Virus record (IMG/VR): IMGVR_UViG_2681813233_000001
DNA: 6,498 nucleotides
Origin: a virus
Taxonomy: Duplodnaviria > Heunggongvirae > Uroviricota > Caudoviricetes
Direction: 5' to 3' (one strand)
The notes below the pieces were generated by a model. The model was not told the origin of the DNA. It did not search any database and saw nothing but the letters and a program-made list of their open reading frames with translations. How positions within the stretch are numbered: position 1 is the stretch's first letter; each line of letters begins with the position of its first letter. Below are positions 1 to 6,498 of the stretch, one piece after another. The translations under genes and the position numbers were made by a program.

Positions 1-63
1 GCATTTGAATCCGGGCTGCGACAATCAACAGAGGAGGAGAAGAGTGACAGCAGAGCTGCGTAA
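1..63 (+). CDS. B: Portal protein gpB, C-terminal fragment (CDS starts upstream of the window)
   Basis: Frame 1 is open from the window edge to TAA at 61-63 (AFESGLRQSTEEEKSDSRAA*). It overlaps the C start at 44 by 20 nt, as at the lambda B/C junction. Only 20 codons are visible, so the identity rests on synteny and memory of lambda. Confidence 0.55.
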   Translation, partial: AFESGLRQSTEEEKSDSRAA

Positions 64-1363
64 TCTCCCGCATATTGCCAGCATGGCCTTTAATGAGCCG
101 CTGATGCTTGAACCCGCCTATGCGCGGGTTTTCTTTTGTGCGCTTGCAGGCCAGCTTGGGATCAGCCGCCTGACGGATGCGGTGTCCGGCGACAGCCTGA
201 CTGCCCAGGAGGCACCCGCGACGCTGGCATTATCCGGTGATGATGACGGACCACGACAGGCCCGCAGTTATCAGGTCATGAACGGCATCGCCGTGCTGCC
301 GGTGTCCGGCACGCTGGTCAGCCGGACGCGGGCGCTGCAGCCGTATTCGGGAATGACCGGTTACAACGGCATTATCGCCCGTCTGCAACAGGCTGCCAGC
401 GATCCGATGGTGGACGGCATTCTGCTCGATATGGACACACCGGGCGGGATGGTGGCGGGAGCATTTGACTGCGCTGACATCATCGCCCGTGTGCGTGACA
501 TAAAACCGGTATGGGCGCTGGCCAACGACATGAACTGCAGTGCAGGTCAGCTGCTTGCCAGCGCCGCCTCCCGGCGTCTGGTCACGCAGACCGCCCGGAC
601 AGGCTCCATCGGCGTCATGATGGCTCACAGTAATTACGGTGCTGCGCTGGAGAAACAGGGCGTGGAAATCACGCTGATTTACAGCGGCAGCCATAAGGTG
701 GATGGCAACCCCTACAGCCATCTACCGGATGACGTCCGGGAAACACTGCAGTCCCGGATGGATGCAACCCGCCGGATGTTTGCGCAGAAGGTGTCGGCAT
801 ATACCGGCCTGTCCGTGCAGGCTGTGCTGGATACCGAGGCTGCAGTGTACAGCGGTCAGGAGGCCATTGATGCCGGACTGGCTGATGAACTTGTCAACAG
901 CACCGATGCGATCACCGTTATGCGTGATGCACTGGATGCACGTAAATCCCGTCTCTCAGGAGGGCGAATGACCAAAGAGACTCAATCAACAACTGTTTCA
1001 GCCACTGCTTCGCAGGCTGACGTTACTGACGTGGTGCCAGCGACGGAGGGCGAAAACGCCAGCGCGGCGCAGCCGGACGTGAACGCGCAGATCACCGCTG
1101 CGGTTGCGGCAGAAAACAGCCGCATTATGGGGATCCTCAACTGTGAGGAGGCTCACGGACGCGAAGAACAGGCCCGCGTGCTGGCAGAAACCCCCGGTAT
1201 GACCGTGGAAACGGCCCGCCGCATTCTGGCCGCAGCACCACAGAGTGCACAGGCGCGCAGTGACACTGCGCTGGATCGTCTGATGCAGGGGGCACCGGCA
1301 CCGCTGGCTGCAGGTAACCCGGCATCTGATGCCGTTAACGATTTGCTGAACACACCAGTGTAA
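44..1363 (+). CDS. C: Head maturation protease / minor capsid protein gpC (S49/ClpP-like serine protease), 439 aa
   Basis: GTG start at 44 preceded by GAGGAGGAG (31-39); 439-codon ORF ending TAA 1361-1363. Translation VTAELRNLPHIASMAFNEPLMLEPAYARV... matches lambda gpC as I remember it. Candidate catalytic Ser166 (codon AGT 539-541) lies in an NCSAGQ motif. The ORF-track start at 5 (TTG) lies inside the B reading region and has no ribosome-binding site. Confidence 0.9.
   Translation: MTAELRNLPHIASMAFNEPLMLEPAYARVFFCALAGQLGISRLTDAVSGDSLTAQEAPATLALSGDDDGPRQARSYQVMNGIAVLPVSGTLVSRTRALQPYSGMTGYNGIIARLQQAASDPMVDGILLDMDTPGGMVAGAFDCADIIARVRDIKPVWALANDMNCSAGQLLASAASRRLVTQTARTGSIGVMMAHSNYGAALEKQGVEITLIYSGSHKVDGNPYSHLPDDVRETLQSRMDATRRMFAQKVSAYTGLSVQAVLDTEAAVYSGQEAIDAGLADELVNSTDAITVMRDALDARKSRLSGGRMTKETQSTTVSATASQADVTDVVPATEGENASAAQPDVNAQITAAVAAENSRIMGILNCEEAHGREEQARVLAETPGMTVETARRILAAAPQSAQARSDTALDRLMQGAPAPLAAGNPASDAVNDLLNTPV
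968..1363 (+). CDS. Nu3: Capsid scaffolding protein Nu3, nested in-frame in the 3' third of C (131 aa from ATG 968; alternative in-frame ATG at 758 gives 201 aa)
   Basis: In-frame ATG at 968 preceded by AGGAGGG (958-964), same frame and stop as C. The product (MTKETQSTTVSATASQADV...) is Ala/Gln/Glu-rich and low-complexity, typical of a scaffold. The lambda database entry places the start at the ATG equivalent to 758, which has no obvious ribosome-binding site here. The end coordinate is certain; the start is ambiguous. Confidence 0.6.
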   Translation: MTKETQSTTVSATASQADVTDVVPATEGENASAAQPDVNAQITAAVAAENSRIMGILNCEEAHGREEQARVLAETPGMTVETARRILAAAPQSAQARSDTALDRLMQGAPAPLAAGNPASDAVNDLLNTPV

Positions 1364-1372
1364 GGGATGTTT

Positions 1373-1705
1373 ATGACGAGCAAAGAAACCTTTACCCATT
1401 ACCAGCCGCTGGGCAACAGTGACCCGGCTCATACCGCAACCGCGCCCGGCGGATTGAGTGCGAAAGCGCCTGCAATGACCCCGCTGATGCTGGACACCTC
1501 CACCCGTAAGCTGGTTGCGTGGGATGGCACCACCGACGGTGCTGCCGTTGGCATTCTTGCGGTTGCTGCTGACCAGACCAGCACCACACTGACGTTCTAC
1601 AAGTCCGGCACGTTCCGTTATGAGGATGTGCTCTGGCCGGAGGCTGCCAGCGACGAGACGAAAAAACGGACCGCGTTTGCCGGAACGGCAATCAGCATCG
1701 TTTAA
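1373..1705 (+). CDS. D: Head decoration protein gpD, 110 aa
   Basis: ATG 1373 with AAGGGA (1362-1367) 5 nt upstream; stop TAA 1703-1705. Translation [27 protein letters not shown]... matches lambda gpD. The ATG at 1367 is in frame but overlaps the ribosome-binding site. Confidence 0.9.
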
Positions 1706-1726
1706 CCTTACCCTTCATCACTAAAG

Positions 1727-1747
1727 GCCGCCTGTGCGGCTTTTTTT
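1727..1747 (+). terminator. Intrinsic-terminator-like hairpin between D and E: GCCGC-CTGT-GCGGC followed by TTTTTTT
   Basis: Perfect 5-bp GC stem 1727-1731 / 1736-1740 with a 4-nt loop, extendable by A:U pairs, followed by a T7 run at 1741-1747 and a second T7 run at 1754-1760 directly before the E start codon. Confidence 0.4.
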
Positions 1748-1760
1748 ACGGGATTTTTTT

Positions 1761-2786
1761 ATGTCGATGTACACAACCGCCCAGCTGCTGGCGGCAAATG
1801 AGCAGAAATTTAAGTTTGATCCGCTGTTTCTGCGTCTCTTTTTCCGTGAGAGCTATCCCTTCACCACGGAGAAAGTCTATCTCTCACAAATTCCGGGACT
1901 GGTAAACATGGCGCTGTACGTTTCGCCGATTGTTTCCGGTGAGGTTATCCGTTCCCGTGGCGGCTCCACCTCTGAATTTACGCCGGGATATGTCAAGCCG
2001 AAGCATGAGGTGAATCCGCAGATGACCCTGCGTCGCCTGCCGGATGAAGATCCGCAGAATCTGGCGGACCCGGCTTACCGCCGCCGTCGCATCATCCTGC
2101 AGAACATGCGTGACGAAGAGCTGGCCATTGCTCAGGTCGAAGAGATGCAGGCAGTTTCTGCCGTGCTTAAGGGCAAATACACCATGACCGGTGAAGCCTT
2201 CGATCCGGTTGAGGTGGATATGGGCCGCAGTGCGGCGAACAACATCACGCAGTCCGGCGGCACGGAGTGGAGCAAGCGTGACAAGTCCACGTATGACCCG
2301 ACCGACGATATCGAAGCCTATGCGCTGAACGCCAGCGGAGTGGTGAATATCATCGTGTTTGATCCGAAAGGCTGGGCGCTGTTCCGTTCCTTCAAAGCCG
2401 TCAAGGAGAAGCTGGATACCCGTCGCGGCTCTAATTCCGAGCTGGAGACAGCGGTAAAAGACCTGGGCAAAGCGGTGTCCTATAAGGGGATGTATGGCGA
2501 TACGGCGATCGTCGTGTATTCCGGACAGTACGTGGAAAACGACGTCAAAAAGAACTTCCTGCCGGACAACACGATGGTGCTGGGGAACACTCAGGCACGC
2601 GGTCTGCGCACCTATGGCTGCATTCAGGATGCGGACGCACAGCGCGAAGGCATTAACGCCTCTGCCCGTTACCCGAAAAACTGGGTGACCACCGGCGATC
2701 CGGCGCGTGAGTTCACCATGATTCAGTCAGCACCGCTGATGCTGCTGGCTGACCCTGATGCGTTCGTGTCCGTACAACTGGCGTAA
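1761..2786 (+). CDS. E: Major capsid protein gpE, 341 aa
   Basis: ATG 1761, stop TAA 2784-2786. Translation MSMYTTAQLLAANEQKFKFDPLFLRLFFRESYPFTTEKVYL... matches lambda gpE. The ORF-track start at 1734 would place the start codon inside the upstream hairpin and T-run. Confidence 0.95.
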   Translation: MSMYTTAQLLAANEQKFKFDPLFLRLFFRESYPFTTEKVYLSQIPGLVNMALYVSPIVSGEVIRSRGGSTSEFTPGYVKPKHEVNPQMTLRRLPDEDPQNLADPAYRRRRIILQNMRDEELAIAQVEEMQAVSAVLKGKYTMTGEAFDPVEVDMGRSAANNITQSGGTEWSKRDKSTYDPTDDIEAYALNASGVVNIIVFDPKGWALFRSFKAVKEKLDTRRGSNSELETAVKDLGKAVSYKGMYGDTAIVVYSGQYVENDVKKNFLPDNTMVLGNTQARGLRTYGCIQDADAQREGINASARYPKNWVTTGDPAREFTMIQSAPLMLLADPDAFVSVQLA

Positions 2787-2788
2787 TC

Positions 2789-2815
2789 ATGGCCCTTCGG
2801 GGCCATTTTCTCTCT
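2789..2815 (+). terminator. Hairpin with UUCG-type tetraloop plus T-rich tail immediately 3' of E (ATGGCCC-TTCG-GGGCCAT-TTTCTCTCT)
   Basis: Perfect 7-bp stem 2789-2795 / 2800-2806 with loop TTCG 2796-2799, followed by the T-rich tract 2807-2815. It begins 3 nt after the E stop and sits just upstream of the FI ribosome-binding site. Confidence 0.4.
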
Positions 2816-2846
2816 GTGGAGGAGTCCATGACGAAAGATGAACTGA

Positions 2847-3224
2847 TTGCCCGTCTTCAGGTCGCTGGGTGAGCAACTGAACCGTGATGTCAGCCTGACG
2901 GGGACGAAAGAAGAACTGGTGCTCCGTGTGGCAGAGCTGGAAGAGGAGCTTGATGACACGGATGACGCTGCCGGTCAGGACACATCTGTCAGCCCGGAAA
3001 ATGCGCTGACCGGACATGAAAATGAGGTGGTATCAGCGCAGCCGGATACCGTGATTGATACGGCTGCTCTGGTCACGGTCGTGGCACTGGTGACGCTGCA
3101 TACTGATGCACTTCACGCCACGCGGGATGAGCCTGTGGCATTTGTGCTGCCGGGAACGGCGTTTCGTGTCTCTGCCGGTGTGGCAGCCGAAATGACAGAA
3201 CGCGGCCTGGCCAGAATGCAATAA
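2847..3224 (+). CDS. FI: gpFI-like DNA-packaging / head assembly protein, 5' end frameshifted relative to its native ATG at 2828 (possible pseudogene or sequencing error)
   Basis: The ORF 2847-3224 encodes ...SLGEQLNRDVSLTGTKEEL...DEPVAFVLPGTAFRVSAGVAAEMTERGLARMQ, matching lambda gpFI. The native-looking start ATG 2828 (GGAGGAG at 2818-2824) reads MTKDELIARLQVAG and stops at TGA 2870-2872 in a different frame. The long frame has only TTG 2847 as a start and no in-frame ATG until near its 3' end. Confidence 0.6.
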   Translation: MPVFRSLGEQLNRDVSLTGTKEELVLRVAELEEELDDTDDAAGQDTSVSPENALTGHENEVVSAQPDTVIDTAALVTVVALVTLHTDALHATRDEPVAFVLPGTAFRVSAGVAAEMTERGLARMQ

Positions 3225-3235
3225 CGGGAGGCGCT

Positions 3236-3589
3236 GTGGCTGATTTCGATAACCTGTTCGATGCTGCCATTGCCCGCGCCGATGAAACGATACGCGGGTA
3301 CATGGGAACGTCAGCCACCATGACATCCGGTGAGCAGTCCGGCGCAGTAATACGTGGTGTTTTTGATGATCCTGAAAATATCAGCTATGCCGGACAGGGC
3401 GTACGCGTTGAAGGCTCCAGCCCGTCCCTGTTTGTCCGGACTGATGATGTGCGGCAGCTGCGGCGCGGCGACACGCTGACCATCGGTGAGGAAAACTTCT
3501 GGATAGACCGGATTTCGCCGGATGATGGCGGAAGCTGTCATCTCTGGCTTGGGCGGGGCGTACCGCCTGCCGTTAACCGTCGCCGCTGA
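3236..3589 (+). CDS. FII: Head-tail joining protein gpFII, 117 aa
   Basis: GTG 3236 with GGGAGG (3226-3231) 4 nt upstream; stop TGA 3587-3589. Translation (V)ADFDNLFDAAIARADETIRGYMGTSAT... matches lambda gpFII. Confidence 0.9.
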   Translation: MADFDNLFDAAIARADETIRGYMGTSATMTSGEQSGAVIRGVFDDPENISYAGQGVRVEGSSPSLFVRTDDVRQLRRGDTLTIGEENFWIDRISPDDGGSCHLWLGRGVPPAVNRRR

Positions 3590-3600
3590 AAGGGGGATGT

Positions 3601-4179
3601 ATGGCCATAAAAGGTCTTGAGCAGGCCGTTGAAAACCTCAGCCGTATCAGCAGAACGGCGGTGCCCGGTGCCGCCGCAATGGCCATTAACCGCGTTGCTT
3701 CATCCGCGATATCGCAGTCGGCGTCACAGGTTGCCCGTGAGACAAAGGTACGCCGGAAACTGGTAAAGGAAAGGGCCAGGCTGAAAAGGGCCACGGTCAA
3801 AAATCCGCAGGCCAGAATCAGGGTTAACCGGGGGGATTTGCCCGTAATAAAGCTGGGTAACGCGCGGATTGTCCTGTCCCGACGCAGGCGTCGTAAAAAG
3901 GGGCAGCGTTCAGCCCTGAAAGGTGGCGGCAGCGTGCTTGTGGTGGGAAACCGTCGTATTCCCGGCGCGTTTATTCAGCAACTGAAAAATGGCCGCTGGC
4001 ATGTCATGCAGCGTGTGGCCGGGAAAAACCGTTACCCCATTGATGTGGTGAAAATCCCGATGGCGGTGCCGCTGACCACGGCGTTTAAACAGAATATTGA
4101 GCGGATACGGCGTGAGCGTCTTCCGAAAGAGCTGGGCTATGCGCTGCAGCATCAACTGAGGATGGTAATAAAGCGATGA
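3601..4179 (+). CDS. Z: Tail completion protein gpZ, 192 aa
   Basis: ATG 3601 with AAGGGGGA (3589-3596) upstream; stop TGA 4177-4179. Translation MAIKGLEQAVENLSRISRTAVPGAAAMAINRV... matches lambda gpZ. Confidence 0.9.
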   Translation: MAIKGLEQAVENLSRISRTAVPGAAAMAINRVASSAISQSASQVARETKVRRKLVKERARLKRATVKNPQARIRVNRGDLPVIKLGNARIVLSRRRRRKKGQRSALKGGGSVLVVGNRRIPGAFIQQLKNGRWHVMQRVAGKNRYPIDVVKIPMAVPLTTAFKQNIERIRRERLPKELGYALQHQLRMVIKR

Positions 4180-4571
4180 AACATACTGAACTCCGTGCAG
4201 CCGTACTGGATGCACTGGAGAAGCATGACACCGGGGCGACGTTTTTTGATGGTCGCCCCGCTGTTTTTGATGAGGCGGATTTTCCGGCAGTTGCCGTTTA
4301 TCTCACCGGCGCTGAATACACGGGCGAAGAGCTGGACAGCGATACATGGCAGGCGGAGCTGCATATCGAAGTTTTCCTGCCTGCTCAGGTGCCGGATTCA
4401 GAGCTGGATGCGTGGATGGAGTCCCGGATTTATCCGGTGATGAGTGATATCCCGGCACTGTCAGATTTGATCACCAGTATGGTGGCCAGCGGCTATGACT
4501 ACCGGCGCGACGATGATGCGGGCCTGTGGAGTTCAGCCGATCTGACTTATGTCATTACCTATGAAATGTGA
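4176..4571 (+). CDS. U: Tail terminator protein gpU, 131 aa
   Basis: ATG 4176 overlaps the Z stop (ATGA at 4176-4179); stop TGA 4569-4571. Translation [43 protein letters not shown]... matches lambda gpU. Confidence 0.9.
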
Positions 4572-4578
4572 GGACGCT

Positions 4579-5319
4579 ATGCCTGTACCAAATCCTCTGG
4601 CACCGGTGAAAGGGGCCGGGACCACCCTGTGGGTTTATAAGGGGAGCGGTGACCCTTATGCAAACCCGCTTTCAGACGATGACTGGTCGCGTCTGGCAAA
4701 AGTTAAAGACCTGACGCCCGGCGAACTGACCGCTGAGTCCTATGACGACAGCTATCTCGATGATGAAGATGCAGACTGGACTGCGACCGGGCAGGGGCAG
4801 AAATCTGCCGGAGATACCAGCTTCACGCTGGCGTGGATGCCCGGAGAGCAGGGGCAGCAGGCGCTGCTGGCGTGGTTTAATGAAGGTGATACCCGTGCCT
4901 ATAAAATCCGCTTCCCGAACGGCACGGTCGATGTGTTCCGTGGCTGGGTCAGCAGTATCGGTAAGGCGGTGACGGCGAAGGAAGTGATCACCCGCACGGT
5001 GAAAGTCACCAACGTAGGACGTCCGTCGATGGCAGAAGATCGCAGCACGGTAACAGCGGCAACCGGCATGACCGTGACGCCAGCCAGCGCTTCCGTAGTG
5101 AAAGGGCAGAGCACCACGCTGACCGTGGCATTCCAGCCGGAGGGCGCAACTGACAAGAGCTTCCGTGCGGTGTCAGCGGATAAAACAAAAGCCACCGTGT
5201 CGGTCAGTGGTATGACCATCACCGTGAAAGGTGTTGCTGCAGGCAAGGTCAACATTCCGGTTGTATCCGGTAATGGTGAACTTGCTGTGGTTGCAGAAAT
5301 CACCGTCACCGACAGTTAA
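4579..5319 (+). CDS. V: Major tail tube protein gpV, 246 aa, with C-terminal Ig-like (Big_2-type) domain
   Basis: ATG 4579 with GAGGA (4570-4574) upstream; stop TAA 5317-5319. Translation [42 protein letters not shown]... matches lambda gpV. The ORF-track start at 4549 overlaps U and has no ribosome-binding site. Confidence 0.9.
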
Positions 5320-5334
5320 TCCGGAGAGTCAGCG

Positions 5335-5757
5335 ATGTTCCTGAAAACCGAATCATTTGAACATAACGGTGTGACCGTCACGCTTTCTGAACTGTCAGCC
5401 CTGCAGCGTATTGAGCATCTCGCCCTGATGAAACGGCAGGCAGAACAGGCGGAGTCAGACAGCAACCGGAAGTTTACTGTGGAAGACGCCATCAGAACCG
5501 GCGCGTTTCTGGTGGCGATGTCCCTGTGGCATAACCATCCGCAGAAGACAAAGATGCCGTCCATGAATGAAGCCGTTAAACAAATTGAGCAGGAAGTGCT
5601 TACCACCTGGCCCACAGAGGCAATTTCTCATGCTGAAAACGTGGTAATGCGTCTGTCCGGTATGTATGAGTTTGTGGTGAATGATGCCCCTGAACAGGCA
5701 GAGGACGCCGGGCCTGCAGAGCCTGTTTCTGCGGGAAAGTGTTCGACGGTGAGCTGA
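5335..5757 (+). CDS. G: Tail assembly chaperone gpG, 140 aa
   Basis: ATG 5335 with GGAGAG (5323-5328) upstream; stop TGA 5755-5757. Translation MFLKTESFEHNGVTVTLSELSALQRIEHLALMKRQAEQ... matches lambda gpG. Confidence 0.9.
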   Translation: MFLKTESFEHNGVTVTLSELSALQRIEHLALMKRQAEQAESDSNRKFTVEDAIRTGAFLVAMSLWHNHPQKTKMPSMNEAVKQIEQEVLTTWPTEAISHAENVVMRLSGMYEFVVNDAPEQAEDAGPAEPVSAGKCSTVS

Positions 5758-6173
5758 GTTTTGCCCTGAAACTGGCGCGTGAGATGGGGCGACCCGACTG
5801 GCGTGCCATGCTTGCCGGGATGTCATCCACGGAGTATGCCGACTGGCACCGCTTTTACAGTACCCATTATTTTCATGATGTTCTGCTGGATATGCACTTT
5901 TCCGGGCTGACGTACACCGTGCTCAGCCTGTTTTTCAGCGATCCGGAGATGCATCCGCTGGATTTCAGTCTGCTGAACCGGCGCGAGGCTGACGAAGAGC
6001 CTGAAGATGATGTGCTGATGCAGAAAGCGGCAGGGCTTGCCGGAGGCGTTCGTTTTGGCCCGGACGGGAATGAAGTTATCCCCGCTTCCCCGGATGTGGC
6101 GGACATGACGGAGGATGACGTAATGCTGATGACAGTATCAGAAGGGATCGCAGGAGGAGTCCGGTATGGCTGA
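5335..6173 (+). CDS. T: Tail assembly chaperone G-T fusion made by programmed -1 ribosomal frameshift at 5733-5739; the T-frame portion is 5739-6173
   Basis: Slippery heptamer G_GGA_AAG at 5733-5739 in the G zero frame, 6 codons before the G stop. The -1 frame continues open from 5739 (VFDGELSFALKLAREMGRPDWRAMLAGMSSTEYADWH...) to TGA 6171-6173 and matches lambda gpT. The T frame has no ribosome-binding site or ATG of its own. Confidence 0.8.
5733..5739 (+). promoter_or_regulatory. -1 programmed ribosomal frameshift slippery site GGGAAAG (recoding signal for G-T)
   Basis: Heptamer of X_XXY_YYZ form, with GGA at 5734-5736 and AAG at 5737-5739 as zero-frame codons of G; the position matches the known lambda G/T frameshift site. 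Confidence 0.8.
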
Positions 6174-6498
6174 ACCGGTAGGCGATCTGGTCGTTGATTT
6201 AAGTCTGGATGCGGCCAGATTTGACGAGCAGATGGCCAGAGTCAGGCGTCATTTTTCCGGTACGGAAACTGATGCGAAAAAAACAGCGGCAGTCGTTGAA
6301 CAGTCGCTGAGCCGACAGGCGCTGGCTGCACAGAAAGCGGGGATTTCCGTCGGGCAGTATAAAGCCGCCATGCGTATGCTGCCTGCACAGTTCACCGACG
6401 TGGCCACGCAGCTTGCAGGCGGGCAAAGTCCGTGGCTGATCCTGCTGCAACAGGGTGGTCAGGTTAAGGACTCCTTCGGCGGGATGATCCCCATGTTC
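6166..6498 (+). CDS. H: Tail tape measure protein gpH, N-terminal 111 codons (CDS continues past the window end)
   Basis: ATG 6166 with GGAGGAG (6151-6157) 8 nt upstream; it overlaps the T stop (ATGGCTGA at 6166-6173). The frame is open to the window end; translation MAEPVGDLVVDLSLDAARFDEQMARVRRHFSGTETDAKKTAAVVEQSL... matches the lambda gpH N-terminus. Confidence 0.9.
   Translation, partial: MAEPVGDLVVDLSLDAARFDEQMARVRRHFSGTETDAKKTAAVVEQSLSRQALAAQKAGISVGQYKAAMRMLPAQFTDVATQLAGGQSPWLILLQQGGQVKDSFGGMIPMF

Follow-up and report, generated by a model that had tools for sequence, protein, structure and literature searches.

The non-coding spacer that separates the head-decoration gene D from E, the gene of the major capsid protein, in this lambda-like sequence holds a GC-rich hairpin followed immediately by a run of seven T, and comparison with related loci indicates that this stretch (1723-1747) is a genuine, selectively maintained Rho-independent terminator motif, at which transcription would be expected to end. 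The comparison establishes its anatomy, its enrichment at this position, the pattern of its conservation and the T-specificity of its tail. As for its role, we tentatively put first that of a fail-safe or insulating terminator, i.e. one that would stop transcription by polymerase lacking Q, would be read through by Q-modified polymerase and would in this way benefit the phage.

The element is of a known kind and has already been annotated at the same site in relatives. The homologous hairpin is recorded as a rho-independent terminator in HK629 (5911-5931), 434B (6100-6120, with the ribosome-binding site of E annotated at the GGGA), N15 (5980-6004) and HK225; the original lambda record has no terminator feature between D and E. 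Taken by itself the element is ordinary and would not surprise a specialist, while the comparative signal is strong.

Gene map and anatomy of the D-E spacer

The whole stretch of DNA analysed here, referred to as the window, is 6498 nt long and is, by homology, a head/tail region of the lambda family. Its positions 1300-2200 share 99.2 % identity with phage lambda (accession number J02459, 5674-6574) and 99.4 % identity with several Stx1a-converting phages. The genes and the elements of the spacer are located as follows, with the basis of each assignment in brackets.

5-1363: C/Nu3 (open reading frame list and homology to the lambda annotation)
1367-1705, + strand: head-decoration gene D, stop codon TAA at 1703-1705 (homology to lambda D)
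1706-1760, + strand: non-coding D-E spacer, 55 nt (sequence)
1706-1722, + strand: variable part of the spacer, from the D stop codon to the putative terminator (length and sequence poorly conserved)
1723-1726, + strand: A-rich 5' flank AAAG (can pair with U 1-4 of the tail, which lengthens the stem)
1727-1740, + strand: core hairpin, i.e. GCCGC (1727-1731), loop CTGT (1732-1735) and GCGGC (1736-1740)
1741-1747, + strand: first T7 run, U-tract of the putative terminator (sequence and T-specificity)
1748-1753, + strand: ACGGGA (sequence)
1750-1753, + strand: weak Shine-Dalgarno (SD) sequence GGGA of E (predicted anti-SD pairing; ribosome-binding site annotated at the same place in 434B)
1754-1760, + strand: second T7 run, A/U-rich spacer between the SD and the ATG of E (sequence and relatives)
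1761-2786, + strand: major capsid protein gene E, ATG at 1761-1763 (homology to lambda)
2789-2816, + strand: hairpin just past the E stop codon, ATGGCCC-TTCG-GGGCCAT at 2789-2806, with the T-rich tail TTTCTCTCTG
After E, in order: FI, FII, Z, U, V (start at 4579), G and T (open reading frame list and homology to lambda)

Among the nine gene junctions in the window, the largest non-coding gaps are those between D and E (55 nt) and between E and FI (41 nt), the remaining junctions ranging from overlaps to gaps of 15 nt. The lambda late operon is transcribed from pR' by Q-modified RNA polymerase. Both Q and pR' lie outside the window, and the placement in the late operon follows from the 99.2 % identity to lambda together with established lambda biology; by this homology the D-E site lies within the Q-antiterminated late operon, in agreement with the original prediction.

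Two features of the coding regions were noted in passing. The FI frame read from the lambda-type ATG (2828) meets a TGA at 2870 (window 2828-2872), and the FI region contains one extra base (CTTCAGGTCGCTGGG) that is missing in about 100 related loci, the nearest variant being CTTCAGGTGCTGGG, present in 39 loci; this reflects either a frameshifted FI gene or a sequencing error. In addition, a terminator-like hairpin is found inside the coding region of C/Nu3 at 110-141 on the + strand (GAACCCGC-CTATGC-GCGGGTTT, then TCTTTTGTGC).

Within the D-E spacer, the hairpin and both T7 runs were present exactly where they had been described, correct to the base. The hairpin begins 21 nt past the D stop codon on the coding strand, is co-oriented with the operon and has a U-tract that ends two bases 5' of the weak SD of E; the reverse strand of the hairpin carries no comparable T tract. 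Five GC pairs closed by a tetraloop make up the core stem (-7.7 kcal/mol), to which one G.U and three A-U pairs can be added, giving 9 bp when extended. With this extension the 31-nt hairpin reaches -12.2 kcal/mol (z = -3.5, one of 200 shuffles being as good). Folding of the region bore out the predicted hairpin as the dominant structure, since it is the sole helix in the centroid of the 81-nt context, the stability of which is ordinary as a whole (z = -0.6). T7 runs are themselves scarce, with three observed versus 0.34 expected on both strands of the window, and two of the three are located 6 nt apart in the D-E spacer. The GC stem, the tetraloop, the abutting T7 run and the A-rich flank together give the shape of an intrinsic terminator, as had been proposed for the hairpin and the first run.

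No Rfam covariance model, REP included, matched positions 1700-1780, even at E <= 1. A consensus terminator scan of the whole window (1-6498) did not list the D-E site. We attribute this omission to an artefact, i.e. greedy extension of the stem by A-U and G-U pairs, which consumes the T tract; it was therefore rejected as evidence against a terminator between D and E. The scan misses terminators with an upstream A-tract.

Recurrence of hairpins around the capsid gene

Loci with an E homologue were drawn from a phage collection, from a set of one genome per species and from viral contigs. The 235 loci with an identifiable E start and at least 120 nt of upstream sequence reduced to 77 distinct 80-nt upstream sequences. 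These were screened with a simple terminator classifier, which demands an uninterrupted stem of 4 or more pairs, no fewer than 3 of them GC, with a dG not above -5 kcal/mol and 5 or more T among the 8 nt that follow. Both the GC hairpin and such a T-rich tail were present before E in 59 of the 77 sequences; in 12 the hairpin stood alone and in 6 it was lacking, so that a hairpin of either class was present in 71 of 77. The background was determined with the same classifier on the same loci, making the comparison like for like: in other 100-nt windows, the terminator-like motif occurred at a rate of 2.6 % on the + strand and 2.4 % on the - strand, and any comparable hairpin in about 22 %. The terminator-like motif is enriched about 30-fold over background 5' of E.

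Of the six sequences without a hairpin, three have variants of the phage-21 hairpin with a single mismatch and one comes from a lambda contaminant of low coverage. The Providencia-type group, whose five loci have one upstream sequence in common, and the alphaproteobacterial sequence L267 were also scored without an upstream hairpin.

At least 17 distinct stems were found at this position, e.g. GCCGC/GCGGC, GGGTCGC/GCGGCCC, GGCCAC/GTGGCC, CCGCC/GGCGG, GGCTGCC/GGCGGCC, CGGGTCGC/GCGGCCCG, GCCGCG/CGCGGC, CCTCCGGC/GCCGGAGG and TCAGGCCAC/GTGGCCTGA. In the phage-21-like family, the leader TTTCTGAATGAAAGGAAC...ATG is kept while the hairpin before it has been swapped among at least four unrelated sequences; the large phage-21 group carries a 9-bp hairpin of -13 to -17 kcal/mol with a degenerate T tract (CTGATTTC). 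An eighteenth stem was found in Methylorubrum-type alphaproteobacterial prophages (L089, L090, L260, L263 and L268), with only 32 % capsid identity. Here, GGGCGCC-TCG-GGCGCCC, TTCTCTTTT, GGAG and the start codon follow one another, the layout occupying about 60 to 25 nt before the capsid start.

Among the 25 sequences that could be aligned with one another, all 123 of 123 pair-cells form standard pairs. In the stem, C has changed to U five times, each time leaving a U.G pair, and a GC pair has once given way to AU by compensatory change, while the loop columns vary freely and the T-tract columns T22-T26 are invariant. RNAalifold returned the same single helix for this set, leaving the leader from the T tract to the ATG unpaired. 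Formal covariation in the alignable set is modest to weak, as 21 of 500 shuffles reach the observed score, and the repeated replacement by unrelated hairpins is the stronger argument for conservation.

The distance from the end of the stem to the ATG is 22.5 +/- 3.7 nt (range 18-33), versus 24.4 +/- 10.9 nt (range 2-81) from the upstream stop codon to the stem. The tight spacing on one side and the loose spacing on the other mean that the terminator is packed against the initiation region of E, with the stretch behind the D stop codon free to vary. The D-E spacer is least conserved upstream of the hairpin, its conserved parts being the hairpin and the T tract.

A second hairpin is found on the other side of the gene. 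Past the end of E, a terminator-like hairpin is present in 58 of 78 distinct sequences and a hairpin without such a tail in a further 15, many of the stems again being unrelated, so that the position just after the E stop codon is occupied in 73 of 78. With hairpins both before and after E, the capsid gene is bracketed. The terminator before and the hairpin after the capsid gene are among the most persistently kept non-coding features of lambda-type head modules.

The survey also brought up lambda head DNA of about 98 % identity on short, mostly low-coverage contigs of unrelated species-representative genomes, i.e. Chromatium, Neobacillus, Kitasatospora, Paenibacillus, Bradyrhizobium, Shewanella, Pseudomonas, an Akkermansia MAG and others (loci L016-L031, L043, L049, L053, L056, L064, L066-L074, L076-L078, L080-L084, L086 and L087). 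This is almost certainly contamination with lambda control DNA.

The two T runs and the initiation region of E

Base composition was compared using one representative for each of 18 stem types. T and A make up 24 % and 46 %, respectively, of the 8 nt before the stem, 74 % and 10 % of the 8 nt behind it, and 46 % and 31 % of the final 8 nt ahead of the start codon. An A-rich flank, a GC hairpin and a U-specific tail are together the signature expected of an intrinsic terminator. Since the termination mechanism requires U directly beside the stem, which an A/U-rich leader does not, the T-specific tail favours a terminator.

The second run behaves differently from the first. A T7 run at this place is specific to lambda proper: AAAAATCT replaces it in the N15/phi80 group and AATAATTT in Perceval and PhiR47_2. 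The latter two phages have a hairpin and a first T7 run identical to those of lambda but GGAAATAATTT before the ATG, and the N15/phi80/Kluyvera/Citrobacter group has GGGAAAAATCT before the ATG. A T-rich spacer between SD and ATG recurs in Erwinia (L046) and in L063. Judged by these relatives, the second T7 run lies outside the terminator and forms the A/U-rich stretch between the SD and the ATG of E. The original prediction had treated the two runs as a double T7. Both runs do exist, but they are not one element, the first being conserved and T-specific and the second freely varying and A/U-rich; a single unit was rejected because A-rich spacers replace the second run in close and distant relatives alike.

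The lengths of the two runs (1741-1747 and 1754-1760) vary between 6 and 8 T among phages of more than 98 % identity (L107, L109, L114, L118, L147, L157, L170 and L015), owing either to real homopolymer slippage or to assembly error. Slippage, if real, would change both the strength of the terminator and the SD-to-ATG spacing.

The ribosome-binding site of E had been described as weak and partly inside this region. It does lie inside the region, and the predicted energies bear out its weakness: the pairing of GGGA with the anti-SD sequence amounts to -4.1 kcal/mol, the weakest of the eight late genes in the window. The leader of E is 80 % A/U, the most A/U-rich of the eight, and its opening energy is among the three lowest, together with those of U and V. 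The suggestion that the hairpin might modulate the initiation of E found no support in silico. In the predicted fold the hairpin makes no contact with the SD or AUG of E, and the initiation region becomes easier to open when either arm is flipped in silico, at 5.6-6.5 instead of 8.5 kcal/mol. On the same grounds, we rejected the idea of the hairpin as an insulator that keeps the ribosome site of E open.

Possible roles and related systems

In the scheme that we tentatively favour, polymerase without Q would form the hairpin in its exit channel and be released at the U-tract. Such polymerase may have leaked past tR', have initiated at spurious internal sites or have shed its Q, and the capsid gene would thereby be insulated from transcription outside the late programme. 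Q-modified polymerase would pass the terminator, leaving the hairpin in the polycistronic late mRNA, where it may form an exonuclease barrier together with the hairpin after E. The second T7 run would serve as the A/U-rich spacer of an unstructured initiation region with a weak SD. This fail-safe role is ranked first because U-specificity beside the stem is needed by the termination mechanism alone. Several points speak against it. A site roughly 10 kb downstream of pR' and tR' is an odd place for such a terminator, the two hairpins around E suggest a function that concerns the E cistron in particular, the phage-21 group retains its hairpin with a degenerate T tract, and the Providencia-type lineage has no upstream hairpin.

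The closest counterparts are those intra-operon terminators in the late operons of lambdoid phages which Q-type antitermination overrides. These have the same GC stem, short loop, abutting U-tract and A-rich 5' flank, and the D-E element is likewise intergenic and co-oriented, with homologues annotated in HK629, 434, N15 and HK225; nor does it differ structurally from Rho-independent terminators in general. The D-E element is notable for its constant position immediately before the SD of E and for the partner hairpin behind that gene. Intra-operon terminators of late operons are not unique to the P22-like phage L and their roles were described as not known in 2020, with partial termination and the halting of non-antiterminated transcription having been proposed for those of lambdoid phages (PMC8022706). 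Our literature search found no long-read or Term-seq transcriptomes of lambda, key lambda papers being outside its reach. The re-creation of a hairpin at the same spot many times by unrelated sequences argues for a real function of intra-operon terminators in late operons under antitermination, and the D-E element offers a clean, well-defined site in the best-studied phage for testing it.

It is possible, if on balance unlikely, that the hairpin acts chiefly as a stabiliser of mRNA segments. In a read-through transcript it would block 3'-to-5' exonucleases after cleavage further downstream, protecting D and the upstream message, and it may also hinder the 5'-end-dependent access of RNase E to E; together with the hairpin after E, it would let the D and E cistrons outlast the rest of the late mRNA, termination being incidental. 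An RNA processing or stability element had been suggested originally, and the second hairpin behind E and the lineages with a hairpin but no clean T tract lend this indirect support. This role is ranked second because E is bracketed and because the phage-21 group combines a strong hairpin with a degenerate T tract, which argues that the hairpin has a value apart from efficient termination. The two largest of the nine junction gaps being those on either side of E, and the swapping of unrelated hairpins before one conserved leader, are also in its favour. Intercistronic stabilising hairpins are moreover an established mechanism. Those of the malE-malF REP and puf operons, like the D-E hairpin, are stable stem-loops between cistrons of unequal demand, and the hairpins before and after E follow the genes of the two most abundant head proteins, D and E, respectively. 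In contrast to the D-E element, however, the malE-malF and puf hairpins have no U-tract, and the D-E hairpin is short and resembles neither REP nor any other Rfam family. A U-tract would be superfluous in a pure exonuclease barrier, but the tail is strongly T-specific and abuts the stem in most lineages, and the five GC pairs of the lambda core stem would make a modest block unless the A-U extension forms. Protection of the message and fail-safe termination are not mutually exclusive.

More doubtful is a role as translation enhancer, in which the U-rich tracts flanking the weak SD would stay unstructured, offer ribosomal protein S1 a place to bind or stand by and drive a very high rate of initiation of E, the hairpin being secondary. 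The A/U content, weak SD and low opening energy of the E leader, as well as the constrained distance from stem to ATG compared with that from stop codon to stem, would fit this, and A/U-rich sequences 5' of the SD are known to enhance initiation via S1; the effect is reported to be small with short SDs, however (PMC2176067). Such enhancers accept A as well as U, whereas the tract beside the stem is T-specific. Serratia-type relatives keep the terminator alongside a strong AAGGAGG SD, the hairpin is unneeded for accessibility in silico, and D is needed in similar numbers yet lacks such a leader. A similar arrangement is known from the rnd leader of E. coli, where, as Zhang and Deutscher are said to have reported in 1992, a stem-loop followed by U8 upstream of the SD is required for translation. 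Both cases have a terminator-like hairpin and a U-run directly 5' of a weak initiation region. The rnd element reportedly lies in a 5' leader just after the promoter, and there the U-run matters, not the hairpin; in the D-E element, by contrast, the hairpin is the most conserved part, and an effect on translation would be hypothetical.

D and E are used in similar copy number in the lambda capsid, and Q-modified complexes are highly resistant to terminators. Both facts make it improbable that the element is a leaky attenuator, at which Q-modified polymerase would end at low frequency, as it would after E, the resulting step-downs tuning the ratio of head to tail proteins: a step-down before E would cut the most-needed late protein relative to D. 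The idea is in line with partial termination as one of the two roles proposed for lambdoid intra-operon terminators (PMC8022706) and with phiX174, in which terminators after capsid genes pass 0.59-0.80 of transcription and read-through at T_J, T_F and T_G gives overlapping mRNAs (bioRxiv 10.1101/2020.03.05.979765). The phiX174 terminators are likewise intrinsic and located at capsid-gene boundaries within a longer transcription unit. However, phiX174 has no antiterminator and its graded termination is documented, whereas near-complete read-through would be expected from Q at the D-E site; its terminators also follow capsid genes, whereas the D-E terminator precedes the most-needed gene.

Capsid proteins are among the phage proteins recognised by bacterial abortive-infection sensors. 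It is tempting to speculate that the paired terminators around the major capsid gene keep the capsid protein fully silent in lysogens, a proposal that we consider quite improbable. If it were true, slight leaky expression of the capsid gene from a prophage could kill the host, and selection would act to fence the gene with strong terminators that only the Q-modified polymerase of the lytic programme can pass.

The phi80 record (accession number FN582354; locus L006) annotates a -35 and a -10 element and a transcription start site at 922-956 in the homologous spacer, with the start in the hairpin. That the spacer holds a promoter for the capsid gene is extremely improbable, and this candidate was rejected: the annotated hexamers are only 13-14 nt apart, versus the 16-18 nt spacing of sigma-70 promoters, no sigma-70-like site exists on the + strand anywhere in the window, and the part of the spacer upstream of the hairpin is the least conserved, as opposed to the hairpin and the T tract. 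Chance, or a neutral leftover without function, would fit the modest z-score of the 81-nt context but is effectively refuted by the sequence comparisons, i.e. the enrichment over background, the repeated replacement of one unrelated hairpin by another, the preservation of pairing by every stem change in the alignable set and the presence of the same architecture at 32 % capsid identity.

The hairpin also contains an in-frame GTG (1734-1736, formed by the last two bases of the loop and the first base of the 3' arm), which serves as the capsid start in the open reading frame list and in accession number OM418626, adding 9 residues to the protein. A start of E at this GTG was rejected, as the codon lies within the hairpin and is missing from N15-type loops (CTGC). 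As a capsid start, this GTG is therefore most likely an annotation error.
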